Below, one piece after another: positions 822 through 56,924 of a DNA stretch of 64,000 nucleotides. This DNA comes from an uncultured virus (IMG/VR IMGVR_UViG_3300028592_000009) (lineage: Duplodnaviria > Heunggongvirae > Uroviricota > Caudoviricetes): the IMG/VR virus record IMGVR_UViG_3300028592_000009; one strand, given 5' to 3'. The notes under the pieces were generated by a model. It saw only the letters and a list, made by a program, of their open reading frames with translations. It was not told the DNA's origin and ran no database searches. The translations under genes were made by a program, and so were the position numbers. Numbering within the stretch: position 1 is the stretch's first letter; each line of letters begins with the position of its first letter.

Positions 822-1175
822 ATGGCGGATGTGGACAGAGGCGAGTGTGTCCGGTGCTACCGCCACGTATGCCTCAAGTGTGGATGGTACAAGGTGGCGC
901 TTCGTGGGGAAGGGGCGATGCCGTGCTTCAGATGTGAGAGCCTTGAGGCTGTGGTGGCTCGGGTTACATCACATCGGTCGGGGAAGTGTCCGGCCAAGCC
1001 GACGCCACGGAGAGAGCGATGCATGTTCTGTGAACACGAGATGGACACGCAGTACATGACTGAGGTGGAAGGGGAGGGGTGGGAGTGCAATGGACAATAC
1101 CGATGCTTCAAGCGACAGGTCGAGCTCGGTACGATCGAGGCACTCGGGGACGATCCCGAGCTTGATGCCGCCTGA
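822..1175 (+). CDS. Cys-rich (zinc-ribbon) hypothetical protein
   Basis: ATG after GAGAGGGG; several CxxC pairs. Confidence 0.6.
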   Translation: MADVDRGECVRCYRHVCLKCGWYKVALRGEGAMPCFRCESLEAVVARVTSHRSGKCPAKPTPRRERCMFCEHEMDTQYMTEVEGEGWECNGQYRCFKRQVELGTIEALGDDPELDAA

Positions 1176-1280
1176 GTGGTGCGCAGCATGGGACGAGTAC
1201 TTCGATGCACATCCCGAGATTGCGGCGTCGTGGAATCACCAGAATGGCCACTGGCCTCCGGGCCACGGAGAGGAGAGCGC

Positions 1281-6301: not shown

Positions 6302-7360
6302 ATGGCGAAGGTCGATGTCGACGAGCTGCTCTCGCTCGTCCAGGGCAAGCAGATCGAGGCGTTGACCACGATCGAGAACGGGGCCGTGCGAGCCGCAACG
6401 CTCGCCGGATTCACGGAGATCGACGACGCCGTCAAGGCTGCGACGACCGGTTGGGTGCAGGCGTTCGGGTCCGCCTCTGCGGAGGGAGAGGCGGGCTCGG
6501 CGCTCAACGCGCTGCTGAGGGCTGCACAGGGCTCGGTCGTCCGAGGACTCGCAGGCCTGCACGAGGGCGCGGTCAAGGCGATGGATGGCGCGATGGACGA
6601 GGCCATGAAGCTCGCCCTGGGCCAGACCGCTACGCTGGTCGAGGGAGCCTCCGGGGCGGACGCCCCAAAGGTTCCCCCTCCCGACCCGCCGGAGGCTGCT
6701 ACGGACGACGCTAAGGCCCTCCGTGGGGCCATCGACGACGCGCGCAAGGCGGCTACCAAGCAGCTGAGCCCGACGGCCGTCCTTCGACTGGGGCTGCGAG
6801 GCCTGCTCGCACCACTGGCCACGGTACGCAGGGTGTTGGACTCTGCCAAGCGGATGATCTCCACCAACGTGAACCGGGCTGTGGACAATGTTCAGCAGGC
6901 GGCTGCAGAGGCGCTCCCGGACAAGGGCGGTCCGAAGCTGGAAGTCTGGATCATCAACAGGGATGCCTGTGTGCGGTGCGCTGCATATGCGGGCGAGATA
7001 GTCGCGAGTGGAGAGAAGTTCCCCGGCGGATTGTCGTGGGATCCCAAGTCAAGGGAGAAGAACGCGCCTGCAGTTCGACCCCCTCTCCATCCCAACTGCC
7101 GTTGCCGACTCGTTCCCTGGAAGGAATCCTGGAAGGAACCCGGCAAGGTATCCTTGCCCGAGGCAGCACGTCGAGAAGCCGAGAGGTCGATCGCGAGAGG
7201 GTTCTCGCTTCCGTCCGAAAGCAACGCATCTCGAGTTCGGGCTCTCAAGGAATTGCTTAAGACGGATCCCAAGCTGCCGAAGACTGTTCTGGCCAATGCC
7301 CGCAAGGCGGCGGCCAAGGGGGAATTCCCCAAGGGTCGGAGCGTTCCGACCGGCGAATGA
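6302..7360 (+). CDS. MuF-like head morphogenesis / minor capsid protein
   Basis: DACVRC and PPLHPNCRCRL motifs; follows portal. Confidence 0.8.
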   Translation: MAKVDVDELLSLVQGKQIEALTTIENGAVRAATLAGFTEIDDAVKAATTGWVQAFGSASAEGEAGSALNALLRAAQGSVVRGLAGLHEGAVKAMDGAMDEAMKLALGQTATLVEGASGADAPKVPPPDPPEAATDDAKALRGAIDDARKAATKQLSPTAVLRLGLRGLLAPLATVRRVLDSAKRMISTNVNRAVDNVQQAAAEALPDKGGPKLEVWIINRDACVRCAAYAGEIVASGEKFPGGLSWDPKSREKNAPAVRPPLHPNCRCRLVPWKESWKEPGKVSLPEAARREAERSIARGFSLPSESNASRVRALKELLKTDPKLPKTVLANARKAAAKGEFPKGRSVPTGE

Positions 7361-24263: not shown

Positions 24264-24326
24264 TTTACGTCGGACTGGAGTTGGGGTAAAGTTCTACTCG
24301 TAAGCAAGAGAACAACGACAAGGGAG
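24264..24326 (+). promoter_or_regulatory. early-type promoter with AACAAC leader
   Basis: TTTACG-17bp-TAAAGT, then TCTACTCGTAAGC...AACAAC...GGGAG, matching the right-arm promoter family. Confidence 0.75.
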
Positions 24327-24332
24327 CCCACC

Positions 24333-24896
24333 ATGAGCAAGATCGTCTGCAACCTCGCCCTCCGCTTCGACCTCGTTCGCAAGTCCAACAACAAGTTCGC
24401 CGTCCGCGAGATCGAGACCGGCAACGAGGTCAGCAACGAGATGGAGCTCACCAAGGCGATCTCCCTGGTCCGAGGCTTCGAGAACGCCGACCGCGCCGGT
24501 TCCTCCTGGATCGGCCAGGGCGACGAGGGCATGTCCGAGCTGACCCGGGTCCTGCTGGAGACGCCCAAGATGAAGACCCGCAAGATCCGGGGCTTCGAGA
24601 TCTGCGTCGACGTCATGGACGAGTCCGACATCGCGGTCGTCTCCACCTGGACCGACTCGGCTCTCAAGTCCCTGCAGGTCCGCAAGATCCGCGAGGGTGG
24701 CAAGGTCTACAAGATGGCCCCCGGCCTGATCGCCACGGTCAAGGCGACCCTGTCCGCCTCCGCCACTGCTCGACGTGCCTACGACGCTCCGGCCGCCGCC
24801 GCTCTCGGTCGCCAGGCCCGCGAGGCGATCATGATCGACCTGGGGATCGACGCCCCGACCGCCTCCAACATCATGCGGAAGATGCGCAACATGTAG
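24333..24896 (+). CDS. hypothetical protein (own promoter and terminator)
   Basis: Strong GC3 bias, RBS. Confidence 0.75.
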   Translation: MSKIVCNLALRFDLVRKSNNKFAVREIETGNEVSNEMELTKAISLVRGFENADRAGSSWIGQGDEGMSELTRVLLETPKMKTRKIRGFEICVDVMDESDIAVVSTWTDSALKSLQVRKIREGGKVYKMAPGLIATVKATLSASATARRAYDAPAAAALGRQAREAIMIDLGIDAPTASNIMRKMRNM

Positions 24897-41074: not shown

Positions 41075-41124
41075 GTTGGCTCTCCTGTTTGATGTGGACA
41101 CGACGGGAAACCCCGAGGTGTTCG

Positions 41125-41203
41125 CTCCCACGGCAGGGTTCGAACCTGCACATCTACCCGGGTGCGACCCGACCAGCGCTCTGCCATACTGAGCTACGTG
41201 GGA
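41125..41203 (-). tRNA. tRNA-like RNA with extended, non-canonical anticodon arm (nominal anticodon CGC)
   Basis: TCCCACG/CGTGGGA acceptor, TA, GCTC-AGTATGGCA-GAGC D arm, GCAGG-TTCGAAC-CCTGC T arm; 27 nt between D and T arms instead of ~22; no encoded CCA. Confidence 0.75.
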
Positions 41204-51927: not shown

Positions 51928-51939
51928 GGTAACTCCTAG

Positions 51940-52010
51940 GGACTCCTCAGCACCGGCACTCTACCGGCGGACCATCGGGGCGGCCTCTCGACCGCCCCTA
52001 GGTTTCGTCC
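51940..52010 (-). ncRNA. type II hammerhead ribozyme HH7
   Basis: GGAC-GAAAC-long stem III-GUC^CGCCGG UAGAGUG CCGGUG-CUGAGGA-GUCC; cut 51970/51969. Confidence 0.92.
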
Positions 52011-52258
52011 TGTGTACTGCTTCTCTCGCACCCGCCGGGACCTACCGGCTGCTTGTGCGAGGCGCGTCGACCAGTCGATTAGCCGAGCTACGGGTTTTGT
52101 GGAGGTCCCGTTCCTGTCAGAAGTCAGCGGCCCTTGCGGGGCGCGATCTCAGCCGTCTTCCTGGGCTGTCCTACTCGGGCTCGCGGTCTTCGGGCTGCGT
52201 CTCGACCGTCGGCTGGATGCGCCGTCCCGGGAGTTCCTCGCTTGCCCTGCTCGCTTAC
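52011..52258 (-). ncRNA. structured non-coding leader RNA A (unknown family)
   Basis: No credible CDS between promoter and HH7; shares covarying motifs with 55735-56148. Confidence 0.6.
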
Positions 52259-52265
52259 GAGTAGA

Positions 52266-52294
52266 ACTATGCGCCATTCCTCCGGGGAAGGCAA
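52266..52294 (-). promoter_or_regulatory. promoter driving ribozyme operon A
   Basis: TTGCCT-17bp-CATAGT, same hexamers as 56156-56184. Confidence 0.75.
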
Positions 52295-52451
52295 ACACCC
52301 ATCTACCTGCGCATTCATCGCGTTTGCCCTGGTAGGGGGCTTGCGAAGATTCTATAATTTCTTTCAAGAAATTACATATGCGCAGGTAGACATGAGTGTC
52401 GACCATCTACGGCGATTCACCGCGCCTCAGCGCGAATCGGGCGAAACCGCC

Positions 52452-52880
52452 CTACAGCGCCGTGAGCTTCCACAGCGAGCTGTCCTCCAGGCGCACAATC
52501 TGGGAGCCGTCCGAGGCCTTGCCGACGGGCTCGTACAGCTCCCAGGTGCCCGGCTTCTCCCAGGGGGCGCGCGGCTTGGCACGGGGCGGCACGGAGGCCG
52601 GGGTGCCGTCGCTGTGCGTGATGGGCTCATTCAGGTCCGCCAGGGGCACACCGGCCACGGCGGGCTGAGCCTTGGGCGCCGCACTGTTGACGCGCCAGAC
52701 GTGTCCCTTGGAGATCACGTCGATGTCCATCTTGTTCTGAGCGATGATGCGGCGCATGACAGCGCGGACCTGCTCGTCGCGGAGGCCGGTCTCCTTGCAG
52801 GCCTCGTTGATGATGATGGTCTGGCCGATGCGCGCGACCAGGTACTTGGTCATGGTCGACTGCACGTTCATGTTACCCAT
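52452..52880 (-). CDS. hypothetical protein (possible winged helix)
   Basis: AGGAGG after a hammerhead; 'NEACKETGLRDEQVRAVM...GHVWR'. Confidence 0.65.
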   Translation of the reverse strand: MGNMNVQSTMTKYLVARIGQTIIINEACKETGLRDEQVRAVMRRIIAQNKMDIDVISKGHVWRVNSAAPKAQPAVAGVPLADLNEPITHSDGTPASVPPRAKPRAPWEKPGTWELYEPVGKASDGSQIVRLEDSSLWKLTAL

Positions 52881-52896
52881 GTTGCAGAGCCCTCCT

Positions 52897-52958
52897 AGAC
52901 TCGTCAGCGGCCGTCTACGGCCGGACCGCACCCCGGTGACCCGGGGCCGGTTTCGTCC
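52897..52958 (-). ncRNA. type II hammerhead ribozyme HH6
   Basis: GGAC-GAAAC-stem III-GUC^CGGCCG UAGA CGGCCG-CUGACGA-GUCU; cut 52924/52923. Confidence 0.92.
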
Positions 52959-52967
52959 TGTGGAGGA

Positions 52968-53600
52968 TCAGACGTAGGACCAGGAGCGCACGACCGACAT
53001 GGTGCCATGGCTGGCGACCCGCTGCCTGGCCGCCTTGAGCAGCTCGTCCTGGTCGGGCTCTCCGAGCACCTTGACGCGCTGCTGGCTGATCTTGGCCGGA
53101 TACTTGAGCCCGTGCTGCTTGTCCATCTGCACGACGGCGAGCCTGTCGTAGCGGTTGAACTCGCTGTCCTCGAACCGGAGAATCACGCCCTCCATGCCCA
53201 CGTACCGGCCACGGGTGGTGAGCGACTTCACGCGCTTGCCGATGCCGGGGGTGGACCAGTTGTCCGTGGCCGACTTCACGAGCATGCGGATCGTCCACTC
53301 GTCGGCCGCCCTGAGCACGTCGATCGTGGCGTCGGCGGAGGCGTTGTGGTGGTACGTCCAGCCACGGGTCGTCGCGTACTGGATCGTCTTGACGCGCTCC
53401 TCCTCGGCGTCCCACACGACCGCGTAGAAGTCGCTGTCGTCGTGCATGTTGCGCTCGTAGATGCCGATCACGGCTCCGAGATAGGTCGTCTCGTGGGCCT
53501 CAAGGTGCAGTTTGTTGAGCGCCTCGTCGGAGCTGTACTGGTTGGGGTCGTACCCCTGCTCCTTGCCGTGCCAGGGGTTGGTGCAAGTGATGATGGGCAT
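52968..53600 (-). CDS. hypothetical protein
   Basis: GAGGAGG RBS after a hammerhead; 'HDDSDFYAVVWD...YATTR'. Confidence 0.75.
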   Translation of the reverse strand: MPIITCTNPWHGKEQGYDPNQYSSDEALNKLHLEAHETTYLGAVIGIYERNMHDDSDFYAVVWDAEEERVKTIQYATTRGWTYHHNASADATIDVLRAADEWTIRMLVKSATDNWSTPGIGKRVKSLTTRGRYVGMEGVILRFEDSEFNRYDRLAVVQMDKQHGLKYPAKISQQRVKVLGEPDQDELLKAARQRVASHGTMSVVRSWSYV

Positions 53601-53613
53601 GATTCCTCCTCGG

Positions 53614-53666
53614 GAGCTCTTCAGCAGGACCGTGCAGCCCTGGACGCTCACATGAGCGTTTCGCTC
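53614..53666 (-). ncRNA. type II hammerhead ribozyme HH5
   Basis: GAGC-GAAAC-GCUC AUGU GAGC-GUC^CAGGGC UGCACG GUCCUG-CUGAAGA-GCUC; cut 53643/53642. Confidence 0.93.
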
Positions 53667-53848
53667 TGGGTGGCGACCTCCGCACCCCTCCATATGAGTG
53701 CAGAGGCCGCCTGCGGGCCATTTCGAACAAGGCTCGTGCCCGGGCACAACCCGGTCGGACGATCGTGCTCCTAGGAGTGCACTAGCGAAAGCCGTGCTGC
53801 ACGAGCCAGGTCTTACGGATCCCCGCGTTCCGGCCGTCGCCGGAAGTC

Positions 53849-53998
53849 TTATGCCAGCTCCAGGCCTCTGTCGAAGCCGCACTGGGCATGGGCGACGATG
53901 CTGATGGCGCCCGAACGATCGGCCGTCCTGAACTCAGCCATCTCGTCGTCCGGCCCCTCGTCGCAGAGCTCGCAGTCGTCGTTGAACTCGGGCAGCAT
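53849..53998 (-). CDS. small Cys/His protein (49 aa)
   Basis: Read by hand: MLPEFNDDCELCDEG...HAQCG; TGATG coupling. Confidence 0.55.
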   Translation of the reverse strand: MLPEFNDDCELCDEGPDDEMAEFRTADRSGAISIVAHAQCGFDRGLELA

Positions 53999-54255
53999 CA
54001 GAGGGCCTTCCGAACGTTGATGGAGAGGACGACCGGGTTGGTCCAGATGTAGTTGCCGGAGCCGTCGGTGTTGCTCTGGTGGACGGTCGTCCTCCGGTCG
54101 ATGCGGTATGCCATCACGAACCGCGCGGCCATCGTTATGTCCGGGAGCTCGATGTCGAGCGTGCCGGTTCGATCCATGCCGTGGACCGTGGCCTTGAAGG
54201 CGGCCACGTTGCTCGTCAGCAGACCCTGCAGAACGGTGTCGATCTCGATGGTCAT
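53998..54255 (-). CDS. hypothetical protein
   Basis: GGAGG RBS after a hammerhead. Confidence 0.7.
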   Translation of the reverse strand: MTIEIDTVLQGLLTSNVAAFKATVHGMDRTGTLDIELPDITMAARFVMAYRIDRRTTVHQSNTDGSGNYIWTNPVVLSINVRKAL

Positions 54256-54264
54256 GATTCCTCC

Positions 54265-54321
54265 GGTCTCTTCAGCAGGCGCACCTTACGCCTGGACGTC
54301 GCTGGCTGCGACGTTTCGACC
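54265..54321 (-). ncRNA. type II hammerhead ribozyme HH4
   Basis: GGUC-GAAAC-GUCGC AGCCA GCGAC-GUC^CAGGCG UAAGGUG CGCCUG-CUGAAGA-GACC; cut 54295/54294. Confidence 0.94.
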
Positions 54322-54385
54322 TGGTTGGAGAAGTGGTCTTGCCGGCATGCCCATAAGCAGGCTAGCCAGACGGATAGGGCGGCCA

Positions 54386-54481
54386 TCAGGCCGCGCCCCA
54401 GAAGATCGCCAGGCTGACGGCGACAACGCCGATCACGAACAGGATGCACCCGAGGGCCATCTGGTCTCCGCTAACACCCAT
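54386..54481 (-). CDS. 31-aa single-TM peptide
   Basis: MGVSGDQMALGCILFVIGVVAVSLAIFWGAA; TGATG coupling. Confidence 0.5.
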   Translation of the reverse strand: MGVSGDQMALGCILFVIGVVAVSLAIFWGAA

Positions 54482-54600
54482 CAGAAGAACTCCACCTTCG
54501 AAACGATGAACATGAGCACGGACATGAGGACCATCCCGACCGCCATCAGCGCGAGCAGGAACAGGAAGCAGCCGCGCGCTTCCTCGTAGCCGTCGGCCAT
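54481..54600 (-). CDS. 39-aa single-TM peptide
   Basis: MADGYEEARGCFLFLLALMAVGMVLMSVLMFIVSKVEFF; TGATG coupling. Confidence 0.55.
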   Translation of the reverse strand: MADGYEEARGCFLFLLALMAVGMVLMSVLMFIVSKVEFF

Positions 54601-54719
54601 CAGAACACCAGCCCCATCAGGATGGTGAAGCCGACACCCAAGGCGAACCCCAGTCCGCCGAGACCGACAAGTATCTTGAACAGGTCGCTCCTGTCGCGAT
54701 CGCTGGAACCCATCAGCAT
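54600..54719 (-). CDS. 39-aa single-TM peptide
   Basis: MLMGSSDRDRSDLFKILVGLGGLGFALGVGFTILMGLVF; TGATG coupling. Confidence 0.55.
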   Translation of the reverse strand: MLMGSSDRDRSDLFKILVGLGGLGFALGVGFTILMGLVF

Positions 54720-54847
54720 CAGTGCTTCCTGCCCTTCTTGTCCTTGCCGGTGTTCTTGATGAGGACGTAGACGATCCAGCAGATCACGGCGATGAAGCCG
54801 AAGAACAGCAGGGTGTCCACGATGAGGATGAACAGTTCAGCGGGCAT
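54719..54847 (-). CDS. 42-aa single-TM peptide
   Basis: MPAELFILIVDTLLFFGFIAVICWIVYVLIKNTGKDKKGRKH; AAGGAG after a hammerhead. Confidence 0.65.
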   Translation of the reverse strand: MPAELFILIVDTLLFFGFIAVICWIVYVLIKNTGKDKKGRKH

Positions 54848-54858
54848 GCACTCTCCTT

Positions 54859-54941
54859 GAGCTCGTCAGCACGGCCACCTAGCCGTGGACGAGCCCCGGG
54901 CGAAGGGGTGTTGGGGAGTCCGCCCGGGGCTCGTTTCGCTC
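54859..54941 (-). ncRNA. type II hammerhead ribozyme HH3
   Basis: GAGC-GAAAC-long stem III-GUC^CACGGC UAGGUG GCCGUG-CUGACGA-GCUC; cut 54888/54887. Confidence 0.93.
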
Positions 54942-54945
54942 TGTC

Positions 54946-55254
54946 CTACTTGTCCGTCGGGACGTTGACGACCGCGTCGTCCGAGCCCCAGCCCGCGTTC
55001 GGGTCCGAGCCCTGGTCCTGCGGGATGTTGACGACCTCGCTGTCGTTGCCGAGGTACTGGTTCTCGTCGCCCATGTTGGCGATCTCCTTCTTGATCTGGT
55101 TCCAGATCGTCTCGTCGTCGAGGTGCGGGAACGTCTTCTTGGCGATGACGAAGACCGACTGAATCTCGATGTCTCCCTCAGCCCAGCAGGGCATGCTGCC
55201 CGGGCCCGGCACCTTCTGCTTGGTCAGCTCCTGGATGTCGAGCTCGACCTTCAT
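54946..55254 (-). CDS. hypothetical protein
   Basis: AGGAGG RBS after a hammerhead. Confidence 0.7.
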   Translation of the reverse strand: MKVELDIQELTKQKVPGPGSMPCWAEGDIEIQSVFVIAKKTFPHLDDETIWNQIKKEIANMGDENQYLGNDSEVVNIPQDQGSDPNAGWGSDDAVVNVPTDK

Positions 55255-55264
55255 GCTTCCTCCT

Positions 55265-55323
55265 AGGACTCATCAGCACGGCTTCCTTAGCCGTGGACCC
55301 GGCTGGCTACCGGGTTTCGTCCT
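55265..55323 (-). ncRNA. type II hammerhead ribozyme HH2
   Basis: AGGAC-GAAAC-CCGG UAGCCAG CCGG-GUC^CACGGC UAAGGAA GCCGUG-CUGAUGA-GUCCU; cut 55296/55295. Confidence 0.95.
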
Positions 55324-55649
55324 CAGTTGAACTGCGCCTCGACCAGCGTCCTGTGTCGGCGGATGGCCTGGCGTACCGCGTCGTACTTCGCCCCGTGCCG
55401 GAACGCCACGGCCTGCATGGCGCCTCTGACGCATCCGAGCTTGACCCAGTCCTCGTACAGCCTGGCGTCCGACACCCTGAGCGGAATGTACTCGCGCTGG
55501 ACGATGTCGTACCGAGCCTTGAGCCGCCTGCGGATGCAGGTTTCGGTCACTCCGTACTGGAGCGCCGTCTGCGAGACGTTCCGACCGAGCAGCTCCCACA
55601 TCGTGTGGATGCGCTCGTTGTCCTGGGGCAGCTGGCTGGTTGCCGGCAT
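55323..55649 (-). CDS. HTH-like DNA-binding protein
   Basis: 'GRNVSQTALQYGVTETCIRRRL'; GGAGG RBS after a hammerhead. Confidence 0.65.
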   Translation of the reverse strand: MPATSQLPQDNERIHTMWELLGRNVSQTALQYGVTETCIRRRLKARYDIVQREYIPLRVSDARLYEDWVKLGCVRGAMQAVAFRHGAKYDAVRQAIRRHRTLVEAQFN

Positions 55650-55660
55650 GCTCACCTCCG

Positions 55661-55734
55661 AGACTCTTCAGCAGCGCCGTTCAGCGCCGGACAGCCCGCC
55701 CCCGGGTCATGGCCAAGGGCGGACTGTTTCGTCT
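55661..55734 (-). ncRNA. type II hammerhead ribozyme HH1
   Basis: AGAC-GAAAC-long stem III-GUC^CGGCGC UGAACG GCGCUG-CUGAAGA-GUCU; cut 55690/55689. Confidence 0.92.
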
Positions 55735-56148
55735 TGTTGTGTTGCCTGCACCCCTGTGGGACCTACCACAGCGCTTGTGCAGTTCGCAGCTAGCTTTGCA
55801 CCTTGCCTACCAACCTGATGTGTCCACGTAGAAGCGGGTTCCGTGTCTCCCTCGCTTGTACGTGGCCGTCCCAGGCCAGTCGCGTGCTGTCAGCCTCTCG
55901 GCTGTCGCCTGCCACTACCGGTTGTGTGGGGGTCCGGTTCCCGTCTCGAGTCAGCCGCCTGCTGGACACCTTCTCCAGAGGGGGCGATTAAGGCCGTCTC
56001 CCTTGGCCCGCCCGGGTTGTCGTCACCGGGCTCCGAGTTCGACCGCGAGGGCCAGCTTGGGGGATGGGTTCCCGGTTCACCCGTAGGTCGCTTCCGGTCC
56101 GCTCTCCCCGCCTCAGAGGGGGTCGGACCCTCTGCGACTCGGTGTTAC
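55735..56148 (-). ncRNA. structured non-coding leader RNA B (unknown family)
   Basis: ~410 nt with no credible CDS between promoter and HH1; homologous to leader A. Confidence 0.6.
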
Positions 56149-56155
56149 GAGGAGA

Positions 56156-56184
56156 ACTATGCCCCAGTCGGGCTGAGAAGGCAA
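56156..56184 (-). promoter_or_regulatory. promoter driving ribozyme operon B
   Basis: TTGCCT-17bp-CATAGT. Confidence 0.75.
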
Positions 56185-56212
56185 ACAGCCTCCTACCTGG
56201 TCATTCATCGGA

Positions 56213-56288
56213 AAAGCCCTGGTAGGAGGCTTGCGAACAATCTTGAAGTTTTTTGAAGAAATCATGAAAGCCCTGGTAGGAGGCTTGC
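56213..56288. repeat. 22-bp direct repeat AAAGCCCTGGTAGGAGGCTTGC x2 (candidate operator)
   Basis: Exact copies at 56213-56234 and 56267-56288; related copy at ~52326-52344. Confidence 0.75.
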
Positions 56289-56457
56289 CGGCATGCCGAA
56301 GCCGTAGGCGCCCCGTAGGCGGCTCGCGAGCGCTCGCGAGGGCGCGGGTATCCGGGCGCGCCCGTTCGCCCCGTAGGCGGCCACGTAGCGGCTCTGCCGG
56401 GGCCGGAACGCAGAACAGCCCCGCTCCCTCTCGGGGCGGGGCTGCTGGGGCTGGATG

Positions 56458-56829
56458 CTAGTCGACGAACTCGCTCAGGATCGCGTAGACCTCGACCTTG
56501 GCCTTGCGGGTCGTGGCCGCCTCGGCGTTGACCCAGGGGCTCGTCGACTGGACGCCGTAGTCCTCGATCAGCTCGTCGCGCATCCGGCGGACCCGGTAGA
56601 CCAGCTGCTTGGACTGCTCGACCGCGTCGGCCTTGTACTTCTCGGCGACCAGGTACAGGCGGGTCCAGGCGTCCAGGACAGCCTCGGCCTTGGCCACGTC
56701 CTCCATCCGGCTGACCGGGACCCTGGTCGGCTCGGCGATCGCCTTGGTCAGCGCGTCGTACGCCTTGTTGAGGTTGGTGTTGGCCTTGGCGGCCTCAGCG
56801 ATCACGGCGGCGGCGAGGGACTGGTACAC
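56458..56829 (-). CDS. hypothetical protein (single-gene cassette)
   Basis: Own promoter (56872-56900), AACAAC leader, downstream hairpin. Confidence 0.75.
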   Translation of the reverse strand: MYQSLAAAVIAEAAKANTNLNKAYDALTKAIAEPTRVPVSRMEDVAKAEAVLDAWTRLYLVAEKYKADAVEQSKQLVYRVRRMRDELIEDYGVQSTSPWVNAEAATTRKAKVEVYAILSEFVD

Positions 56830-56924
56830 GGCGTTCTCCTTGTTGTTGTTCCGGTTGGCCTTACAGTAAGAACCATACCCCAGTCAGGGTGGAGGCGCTA
56901 CCCTCCACCCCGGGCTTTCCTGGA

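Follow-up and report, generated by a model that had tools for sequence, protein, structure and literature searches.

We analysed a 64,000-nt stretch of DNA (the window) from an uncultured Caudoviricetes virus, IMG/VR record IMGVR_UViG_3300028592_000009, a GC-rich Streptomyces phage in which the region concerned is transcribed leftward and type II hammerhead-like elements lie between the genes. Two early operons of this region are headed by leader A (52011–52258) and leader B (55735–56148), both on the minus strand. As judged by sequence comparison, the two leaders are paralogous members of an uncatalogued, modular and pseudoknotted leader-RNA family, which is found in one ~69-kb Streptomyces phage cluster and its uncultured soil relatives. 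Each copy appears, from the adjacent promoter sequence, to be transcribed from the +1 of an operator-flanked sigma-70-type promoter, and release by the first hammerhead is predicted for leaders A and B, but is not universal in the family.

From +1 at G52258 to the predicted hammerhead cleavage 3′ of C51970, the released form of leader A would span 51970–52258 (289 nt), and that of leader B, from +1 at G56148 to the predicted cleavage 3′ of C55690, would span 55690–56148 (459 nt); both +1 positions were inferred solely from the TTGCCT-17-CATAGT promoter. These lengths agree with the freed RNAs of about 290 and 460 nt proposed in an earlier note on this DNA. Leader A consists of a 5′ rod (52182–52255) of stacked helices P0–P4 that form one long irregular hairpin, a double-pseudoknot domain (52090–52168), which was matched by our covariance model R1 with 23.3 bits (E 4.5e-4), and a two-tier terminal hairpin (52025–52061; outer stem, inner stem, UAGGUC loop). 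The double-pseudoknot domain of leader A comprises P6 (52150–52168), pseudoknot 1 (PK1) between the P6 loop GAAG and CUUC at 52120–52123, P7 with its GCAA hairpin (52127–52144), and the H-type pseudoknot 2 (PK2, 52090–52115). In leader B, a specific 5′ domain of 139 nt (56010–56148) stands in place of the P0–P4 rod, followed by the double-pseudoknot domain (55917–56009; R1 partial match at 55911–55965, 13.4 bits, E 0.19) with P6 at 55992–56009, P7 and its hairpin at 55957–55985, the PK1 3′ strand within 55943–55950 and PK2 at 55917–55942. The core of a further module, module 2 (55810–55879), and a terminal hairpin with the UAGGUC loop (55746–55782) complete leader B. Its 5′ domain is common to phage Yara and one identical viral contig only, and differs from that of Yara by one compensatory change seen by eye (CAGAGGG/CCCUCUG vs CCGAGGG/CCCUCGG).

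The homology between leaders A and B is limited to the ~90-nt double-pseudoknot domain and the terminal hairpin, and does not extend to their 5′ halves. The ordered minus-strand motifs that the earlier note had described in both leaders were recovered by the A–B alignment, and the last of them also by a 41-nt degenerate pattern (GCUGACU..GAC.GGAAC.GGACC.CCACA.AACC.GUAG), which has two matches in the 64 kb, at 52088–52128 and 55915–55955 on the minus strand, and none in 100 shuffled sequences. By eye, P7 (GCG/CGC vs GCC/GGC) and PK2 stem 1 (AGG/CCU vs GGG/CCC) covary between A and B. A credible open reading frame (ORF) had been denied to both leaders, and indeed no sense-strand ORF that starts after the inferred +1 is kept in relatives: the sense ORFs of the leaders either start upstream of +1 or are short chance frames broken by indels in relatives.

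Homologues of the leaders were then collected from cultured phages, viral contigs and metagenomes. The 51.9–56.4 kb region matches 22 cultured records, nine of which are the nearest relatives, the ~69-kb Streptomyces phages Yara, phiRKBJ001, Rooney, Dryad, ShakeNBake, PHTowN, Wentworth, Lizz and Gibson, and the other 13 match one short coding piece only. All nine relatives have two large unannotated gaps in matching places, and in each gap a homologous leader lies between a promoter block and a hammerhead. By blastn against 50,697 cultured phage records, the leader RNA was found in those nine only, and the annotation there is always 'none'. Three pattern scans of IMG/VR returned true homologues at 9 of 10, 11 of 19 and 9 of 12 loci, the remainder being chance matches, and one further IMG/VR scan gave zero matches; in a metagenome pattern scan, 14 of 16 loci were true homologues. 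The 20-base pattern of the metagenome scan, searched against 185,579 prokaryote species, with one genome each, had one match, by chance, and no true homologue. Altogether, 45 non-redundant leaders of 211–477 nt were obtained from cultured phages and from soil viral and metagenome contigs. Of the 13 sequencing runs in which the DNA of the window was found, none is an RNA run. With R1, exactly two copies were detected in each cluster phage, and no third copy was found in the window, the only other R1 match (15.1 bits, E 0.07) lying within coding sequence and all extra matches of the rod model R2 having E ≥ 0.6.

No Rfam 15 family, GOLLD and ROOL included, matched the RNA at any threshold tried. 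At gathering thresholds the whole window gave tRNA only, namely the tRNA-Ala (anticodon CGC) at 41124–41203 on the minus strand, a call on which ARAGORN and Rfam agree. With the limit raised to E 10, only weak hammerheads and noise were found in 50.5–57.5 kb, with no match for leader A and four noise-level matches for leader B when the leaders were searched singly. Ribozyme topologies of the hepatitis delta virus (HDV)-like or pistol-like kind were considered and rejected, since their helix order differs and no Rfam match was found. With conservation in 9/9 cultured relatives, compensatory changes and no Rfam 15 match, the new phage noncoding RNA class suggested in the earlier note is upheld, and the leaders are a new RNA class with narrow distribution.

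The double-pseudoknot domain, which is common to leaders A and B, is built of P6, PK1, P7 and PK2. PK1 pairs the P6 loop with the strand just 5′ of a conserved GAC, and reads CGAC/GUCG, CGAG/CUCG, CAAG/CUUG or AGAG/CUCU across the family besides the GAAG/CUUC of leader A. The hairpin closed by P7 varies in length and has a UUCG, GCAA or GNAAA loop, and the third loop of the H-type PK2 is A-rich. Over 46 matches (31 distinct) to R1, 93.5% of 555 alignment cells were paired and 7 of 20 pairs changed on both sides, with a covariation score of 0.207 vs 0.094 in shuffled alignments (0/500 reaching it) and at most 0.098 in slid controls. PK1 and PK2 stem 1 were left out of the model that built the R1 alignment; PK1 was 100% paired with compensatory changes in two of its four pairs, and PK2 stem 1 was 83% paired with A-U to U-A exchanges (AGGG/CCCU vs UGGG/CCCA in relatives). 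G·U pairs also occur (one P6 pair is GU in 18 rows), and because these would give A·C mismatches on the opposite strand, the fold belongs to the minus-strand transcript. An anti-Shine-Dalgarno mimic, based on CCUCC in PK2, was rejected as a candidate: relatives have CCACC with a compensating A-to-U change in the partner strand, so that the internal PK2 helix is what is kept.

The rod and the double-pseudoknot domain together make up module 1, which is present throughout the family except that leader B lacks the 77-nt rod. R2, built on the leader A rod and its relatives, scored 86.3 bits (E 9.8e-23) on leader A and gave no match in leader B. By single-sequence minimum free energy (MFE) folding, the P0–P4 architecture was recovered in 17 of 21 distinct homologues. 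In the Infernal alignment of 41 matches (17 distinct), which was fitted to the structure and so favours the rod, yet misplaces P2 in four divergent sequences and so disfavours it, 91.0% of 377 cells were paired and 4 of 23 pairs changed on both sides. The covariation score was 0.144 vs 0.070 when shuffled (0/500), and slid controls did not exceed 0.039. By eye, P2 takes the forms GGAAC/GUUCC, GAGC/GCUC, GCG/CGC, AGCG/CGCU, GGAAGC/GCUUCC, GAUC/GGUC and CGAG/CUCG in different lineages. Through P0, the 5′ end of the RNA is base-paired within a few nucleotides.

Leader A lacks module 2, which leader B has and which most relatives carry in both of their leaders. Its long-range helix Ha joins 55872–55879 to 55810–55817 in leader B (CUGGCCUG × CAGGUUGG, 8/8 pairs) and encloses the 10–12-bp hairpin Hd (55824–55865), which is capped by the invariant 16-nt loop AGGGAGACACGGAACC. 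An ungapped count of the Hd outer stem underestimates its pairing owing to a 1-nt asymmetry, and constrained folds were used instead; with these, the hairpin with the AGGGAGACACGGAACC loop forms in 8/8 distinct sequences on five different stem sequences. Fourteen of the 45 leaders (10 distinct) carry the terminal hairpin whose loop is UAGGUC. Counted on ungapped 41-mers, 10 of its 13 pairs were compensatory, and 86% of cells were paired vs 25–51% when slid, a result reached in 0/1000 shuffles; as observed earlier, the terminal hairpins of A and B (52025–52061 and 55746–55782) have stems that differ yet still pair. Because other leaders carry unrelated terminal hairpins, this terminal module is interchangeable. 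An unstructured CA-rich spacer always lies 5′ of the hammerhead. Covariation in homologues, named earlier as a check on the RNA, exceeded the shuffled and slid controls in the double-pseudoknot domain and in the rod. The consensus that RNAalifold derived from the raw MAFFT alignment was poor.

Two ideas on the UAGGUC loop did not survive the comparison. The loop-loop pseudoknot between (A)GGUC and GACC(U), which had been suggested to join the two hairpins, was rejected because two independent variants, L025/L029 (GGGUCCUCC) and L054 (loop UAUGUC), break the pairing uncompensated and because GACC is already engaged in the covarying PK2 stem 1. The loop as a decoy for hammerhead stem II was likewise discarded, since GGAC/GUCC and AGAC/GUCU stems go with the same UAGGUC loop and no covariation is seen.

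The first hammerhead after leader A (51940–52010, minus strand) is of type II, with CUGAGGA, GAAA and GUC and cleavage predicted 3′ of C51970, and its stems I, II and III, read directly, have 6, 4 and 3+7 bp. That after leader B (55661–55734, minus strand), also of type II, has CUGAAGA, GAAA and GUC, cleavage predicted 3′ of C55690, and stems of 7, 4 and 11 bp. Both thus display the CUGANGA and GAAA elements, the NUH triplet, the three stems and the open stem II that define the type. The Rfam model RF02276 matched them over its full length with 12.4 bits (51935–52010) and 14.0 bits (55658–55734), below the gathering score of 37, and the long stem III inserts probably lower the score of these first hammerheads. 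Five other hammerheads of the operons scored 18–26.6 bits, also under the 37-bit gathering score, and more were recognized by eye. As outlined in PMC10250234, hammerhead products carry 5′-OH and 2′,3′-cyclic phosphate ends.

A canonical hammerhead core comes after 27 of the 45 leaders and a U4-to-C variant after 12; four distant leaders have no hammerhead, and two loci are cut off. The U4-to-C variants follow the A leaders of eight cultured relatives (L002–L009) and four contigs, with CCGAUGAG or CCGAAGAG replacing CUGANGAG; they keep all three stems, for example in L003 at ~6870–6940 (minus strand), and the orthologues in L040, L041 and L049 are canonical. The earlier proposal that the first hammerhead would release the leader thus stands for A and B, each of which precedes a canonical core, and fails as a rule for the family, where 27 of 45 loci have one. 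A distant group (the contigs behind L012, L015, L055 and L058) has a promoter that differs from that of the main group, and its 96%-complete 79-kb genome carries a single leader copy that heads genes and has no working hammerhead after it. In L015, the distant 79-kb phage, the element directly after the leader keeps only GACGAAAC and has lost CUGANGA, and a hammerhead of 46.5 bits, which passes the Rfam threshold, lies after the first small gene (1123–1189, plus strand). At L058:468–548 (minus strand) and L012:1048–1128 (plus strand), no hammerhead is present, and a 7-bp closing stem with a 5-bp arm and a UUCGAGC or UUCGACU loop is found instead. The predicted fold of this 3′ element is suggestive of a tRNA acceptor/T-arm minihelix; ARAGORN and the Rfam tRNA model called no tRNA on the L012 and L058 leaders.

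Promoter A (52266–52335, minus strand) has a −35 element TTGCCT at 52289–52294 and a −10 element CATAGT at 52266–52271 with 17-bp spacing, its role being assigned from consensus, and promoter B (56156–56279, minus strand) has the −35 at 56179–56184 and the −10 at 56156–56161. The two blocks are near-identical (TTGCCT-17 bp-CATAGT with inverted CTACCWGG half-sites), and the block is kept upstream of the leaders in the cluster relatives L001–L009. Operator-like inverted half-sites lie at 52328–52335 (CTACCAGG) and 52303–52309 (CAGGTAG) for promoter A, and at 56193–56200, 56218–56225 and 56272–56279 for promoter B, all on the minus strand. Half-sites flank both leader promoters, with a third copy further upstream and an AT-rich stretch (52303–52335; 56193–56279), and the sequence of the CTACCWGG array suggests that a phage repressor may use it as a set of operators. 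Two more promoters with the same −10 and initial transcribed sequence (…AGTTCTACTCGTAAGC… / …GGTTCTTACTGTAAGG…) were seen at 24283–24335 (plus strand) and ~56820–56890 (minus strand). Since these two promoters, whose leaders are unstructured and only 30–40 nt long, share the initial sequence, the GUAAG start of the RNA is a feature of this type of promoter rather than of the fold.

What the leader RNA does can be approached by analogy with known antiterminators, and our first, still tentative, choice is a put/conAn-like RNA that acts co-transcriptionally on RNA polymerase. The leader would fold behind RNA polymerase while being made and act on that same polymerase, directly or via a phage or host protein, so that the polymerase would resist pausing and termination along an operon that ribozymes cut into many untranslated pieces. 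The hammerhead would later detach the leader, giving a 5′-OH mRNA with a free ribosome-binding site and, as the other product, a 289- or 459-nt capped-off RNA with a 2′,3′-cyclic phosphate end. An operon in many untranslated 5′-OH pieces would plausibly need protection against termination. The features that stay constant in the family are the position at the first nucleotides of an operon behind its regulated promoter, one copy per such operon and a conserved, specific fold; position, copy number and fold persist even where no ribozyme follows, a pattern that fits co-transcriptional action. The single copy without a working hammerhead in the distant 96%-complete phage shows that release cannot be essential to the role, and since put is active without a transcript tether, a ribozyme cut is compatible with a put-type mechanism. 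A terminator-like branched hairpin with a UUGUUCG tail inside operon B (~53.72–53.81 kb) also speaks for antitermination.

Several results weigh against co-transcriptional action on polymerase. In a simple scan for terminators, neither operon showed one with a U-tract on the minus strand, and promoters of the same type at 24283 (plus strand) and ~56880 (minus strand) drive genes from unstructured leaders of 30–40 nt. The family is narrow, with 9 of 50,697 cultured phage records and no true match in 185,579 prokaryote genomes, and the leader RNA is 3–6 times larger than put and shows no resemblance to it. The MFE is no better than that of shuffles (z = +0.42 for A and −1.50 for B), although in GC-rich sequence such z-scores are evidence neither for nor against, and the comparative model is not reproduced when leader A is folded by MFE.

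Nearly as likely, and thus possible without being probable, is a trans-acting stable RNA, in which promoter and hammerhead would serve to make large amounts of a discrete 289- or 459-nt leader RNA. Once released, with a paired 5′-triphosphate end and a 2′,3′-cyclic phosphate at the 3′ end, it would act as a decoy, sponge or scaffold that binds and titrates some protein or RNA of the host or the phage. The canonical hammerhead after both leaders of the window and after 27 of 45 in the family, with its defined product ends, fits such a role, and the invariant loops on variable stems (AGGGAGACACGGAACC) and the recurrent GAGAC(N)GG motifs would suit binding sites. The minihelix that takes the place of the hammerhead in L012 and L058 is suggestive of a possible RNase P site, but ARAGORN and Rfam call no tRNA in these distant members. 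Maturation is further called into question by the U4-to-C core after 12 of 45 leaders and the lack of any hammerhead after four, and the leader is never found away from the start of an operon.

A sensor leader, whose double-pseudoknot would bind a metabolite or protein and whose downstream modules would relay the signal to hammerhead folding or first-gene expression, is unlikely. The layout matches that of riboswitch regulons, in that the core is conserved, the 3′ 'platform' varies and one genome has several copies before different operons, and highly conserved unpaired nucleotides surround both pseudoknots. Yet the core is followed by neither a terminator nor a helix that would hide the ribosome-binding site, translation is uncoupled from the leader by the hammerhead, no covariation links the loop of the terminal hairpin to hammerhead stem II, and no Rfam riboswitch matched at E up to 10. 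The more specific version, that the double-pseudoknot senses a host metabolite or a phage or host protein and governs the freeing of early messages by the hammerhead, we hold to be quite improbable.

We also give little credence to a passive 5′ structure with no specific partner, which would serve as a folded cap against 5′-end-dependent decay or as an insulator of hammerhead folding. The pairing of the 5′ end within a few nucleotides in P0 and the constant CA-rich unstructured spacer before the hammerhead would be expected of it, but a simple hairpin would suffice for such a job, two covarying pseudoknots and invariant loops across distant phages imply a specific fold, and the ribozyme cut would remove the protection. 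That the conservation reflects no RNA at all, as DNA-level operators, an origin or an overlooked small gene, is scarcely tenable: repeats and palindromes near the promoters (CCTACGG at 56300–56420, ATGCCGGCA) and chance ORFs of 30–64 aa could hint at it, but compensatory changes in at least five helices, strand-specific G·U pairs, variable-length hairpins with UUCG or GCAA loops, indels that are not multiples of three and the lack of an ORF after the inferred start persisting in relatives all contradict it.

Further observations concern the DNA and genes around the leaders. Upstream of promoter B, a strong terminator hairpin CCCCGCCCC…GGGAGCGGGG (56419–56441, minus strand) is followed by GC-rich CCTACGG/GCCGCCTACGG repeats. 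The CCTACGG repeats occupy 56300–56420, with similar repeats in the B gaps of relatives, and the palindrome ATGCCGGCA is present in 56300–56460 (minus strand) and again within the leaders of relatives. A 250-nt non-coding gap of operon B (53600–53850, minus strand) folds (MFE −65.4 kcal/mol, z −1.85) into a branched hairpin, GGCUCGUGC…GCACGAGCC, at ~53.72–53.81 kb, with UUGUUCG and a hammerhead after it; an internal terminator is one possibility for this hairpin, a different kind of structured element the other. Behind leader B, the first gene (55326–55649, minus strand) has weak helix-turn-helix and Mor-activator-like Pfam matches below cut-off, and its counterpart behind leader A is a member of PHROG 20596, a family with no assigned function. 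In phage Yara, the annotated coding sequence of gene 88 (L001 3627–3878) begins within leader B and runs across the hammerhead, and its true start is probably the ATG behind the ribosome-binding site of the ribozyme.

Large RNAs with several covarying pseudoknots are rare and usually are machines or switches. The leader RNA occupies the most strategic position of the phage, the first nucleotides from regulated early promoters, and is coupled to a ribozyme. If it modifies polymerase, RNA-only antitermination would extend from lambdoid coliphages to actinophages, and the escape of ribozyme-punctuated operons from premature termination would be explained. If it acts in trans, it would be a new kind of ribozyme-matured phage effector RNA, and if it is a sensor that governs the hammerhead, it would be the first natural allosteric hammerhead and would tie early expression to the state of the Streptomyces host. 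In any of these cases, a defined, testable RNA is now available in cultured phages (Yara, Wentworth, Gibson and others), and two blank regions in nine GenBank annotations are now marked.

Among known systems, GOLLD and ROOL are large, multi-pseudoknotted RNAs of phages and prophages that form Rfam families with no assigned function. The leaders resemble them in being large, multi-pseudoknotted and phage-borne; to our knowledge, GOLLD and ROOL are neither operon leaders nor terminated by ribozymes. In the openly accessible full-text literature on hammerheads and ribozymes in Streptomyces phages or actinophages and on hammerhead-leader layouts in phages, no description of the leader RNA was found.

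The ribozymes themselves have a precedent in the work of Perreault et al. 2011, which describes arrays of hammerheads on either side of single genes in phage and prophage operons; the 'HHphage' hammerhead of HF1/HF2 lies just before the first early ORF, with a mapped 5′ end at the cleavage site (PMC3088659). The subject of that paper is the ribozymes, and not a conserved large RNA that separates the first of them from the promoter (PMC3088659).

The closest parallels in position, and the characterised examples there in mobile elements, are processive antiterminators. In the account given in PMC9378689, HK022 putL and putR are two related RNAs behind two early promoters that act as nascent-RNA antiterminators independently of a tether. 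Like them, the leaders are paralogous copies directly downstream of promoters, exactly two here, each from its inferred +1. In contrast to put, which has ~70 nt, two stem-loops, a short triplex and a V-shaped fold, the leaders (225–480 nt; 257–423 nt in the size and fold test) have a rod, two pseudoknots, optional modules, a ribozyme that follows and an actinobacterial host; no sequence or structure likeness to put was found. The conAn antiterminator is described in PMC8191782 as a 'large RNA element' at the start of a conjugation operon. It differs in belonging to Firmicutes plasmids and in that its RNA, conAn2, works with a dedicated protein, ConAn1; in layout, the leaders resemble conAn2 of pLS20-type plasmids, each being a large structured RNA with which a long operon of a mobile element opens.

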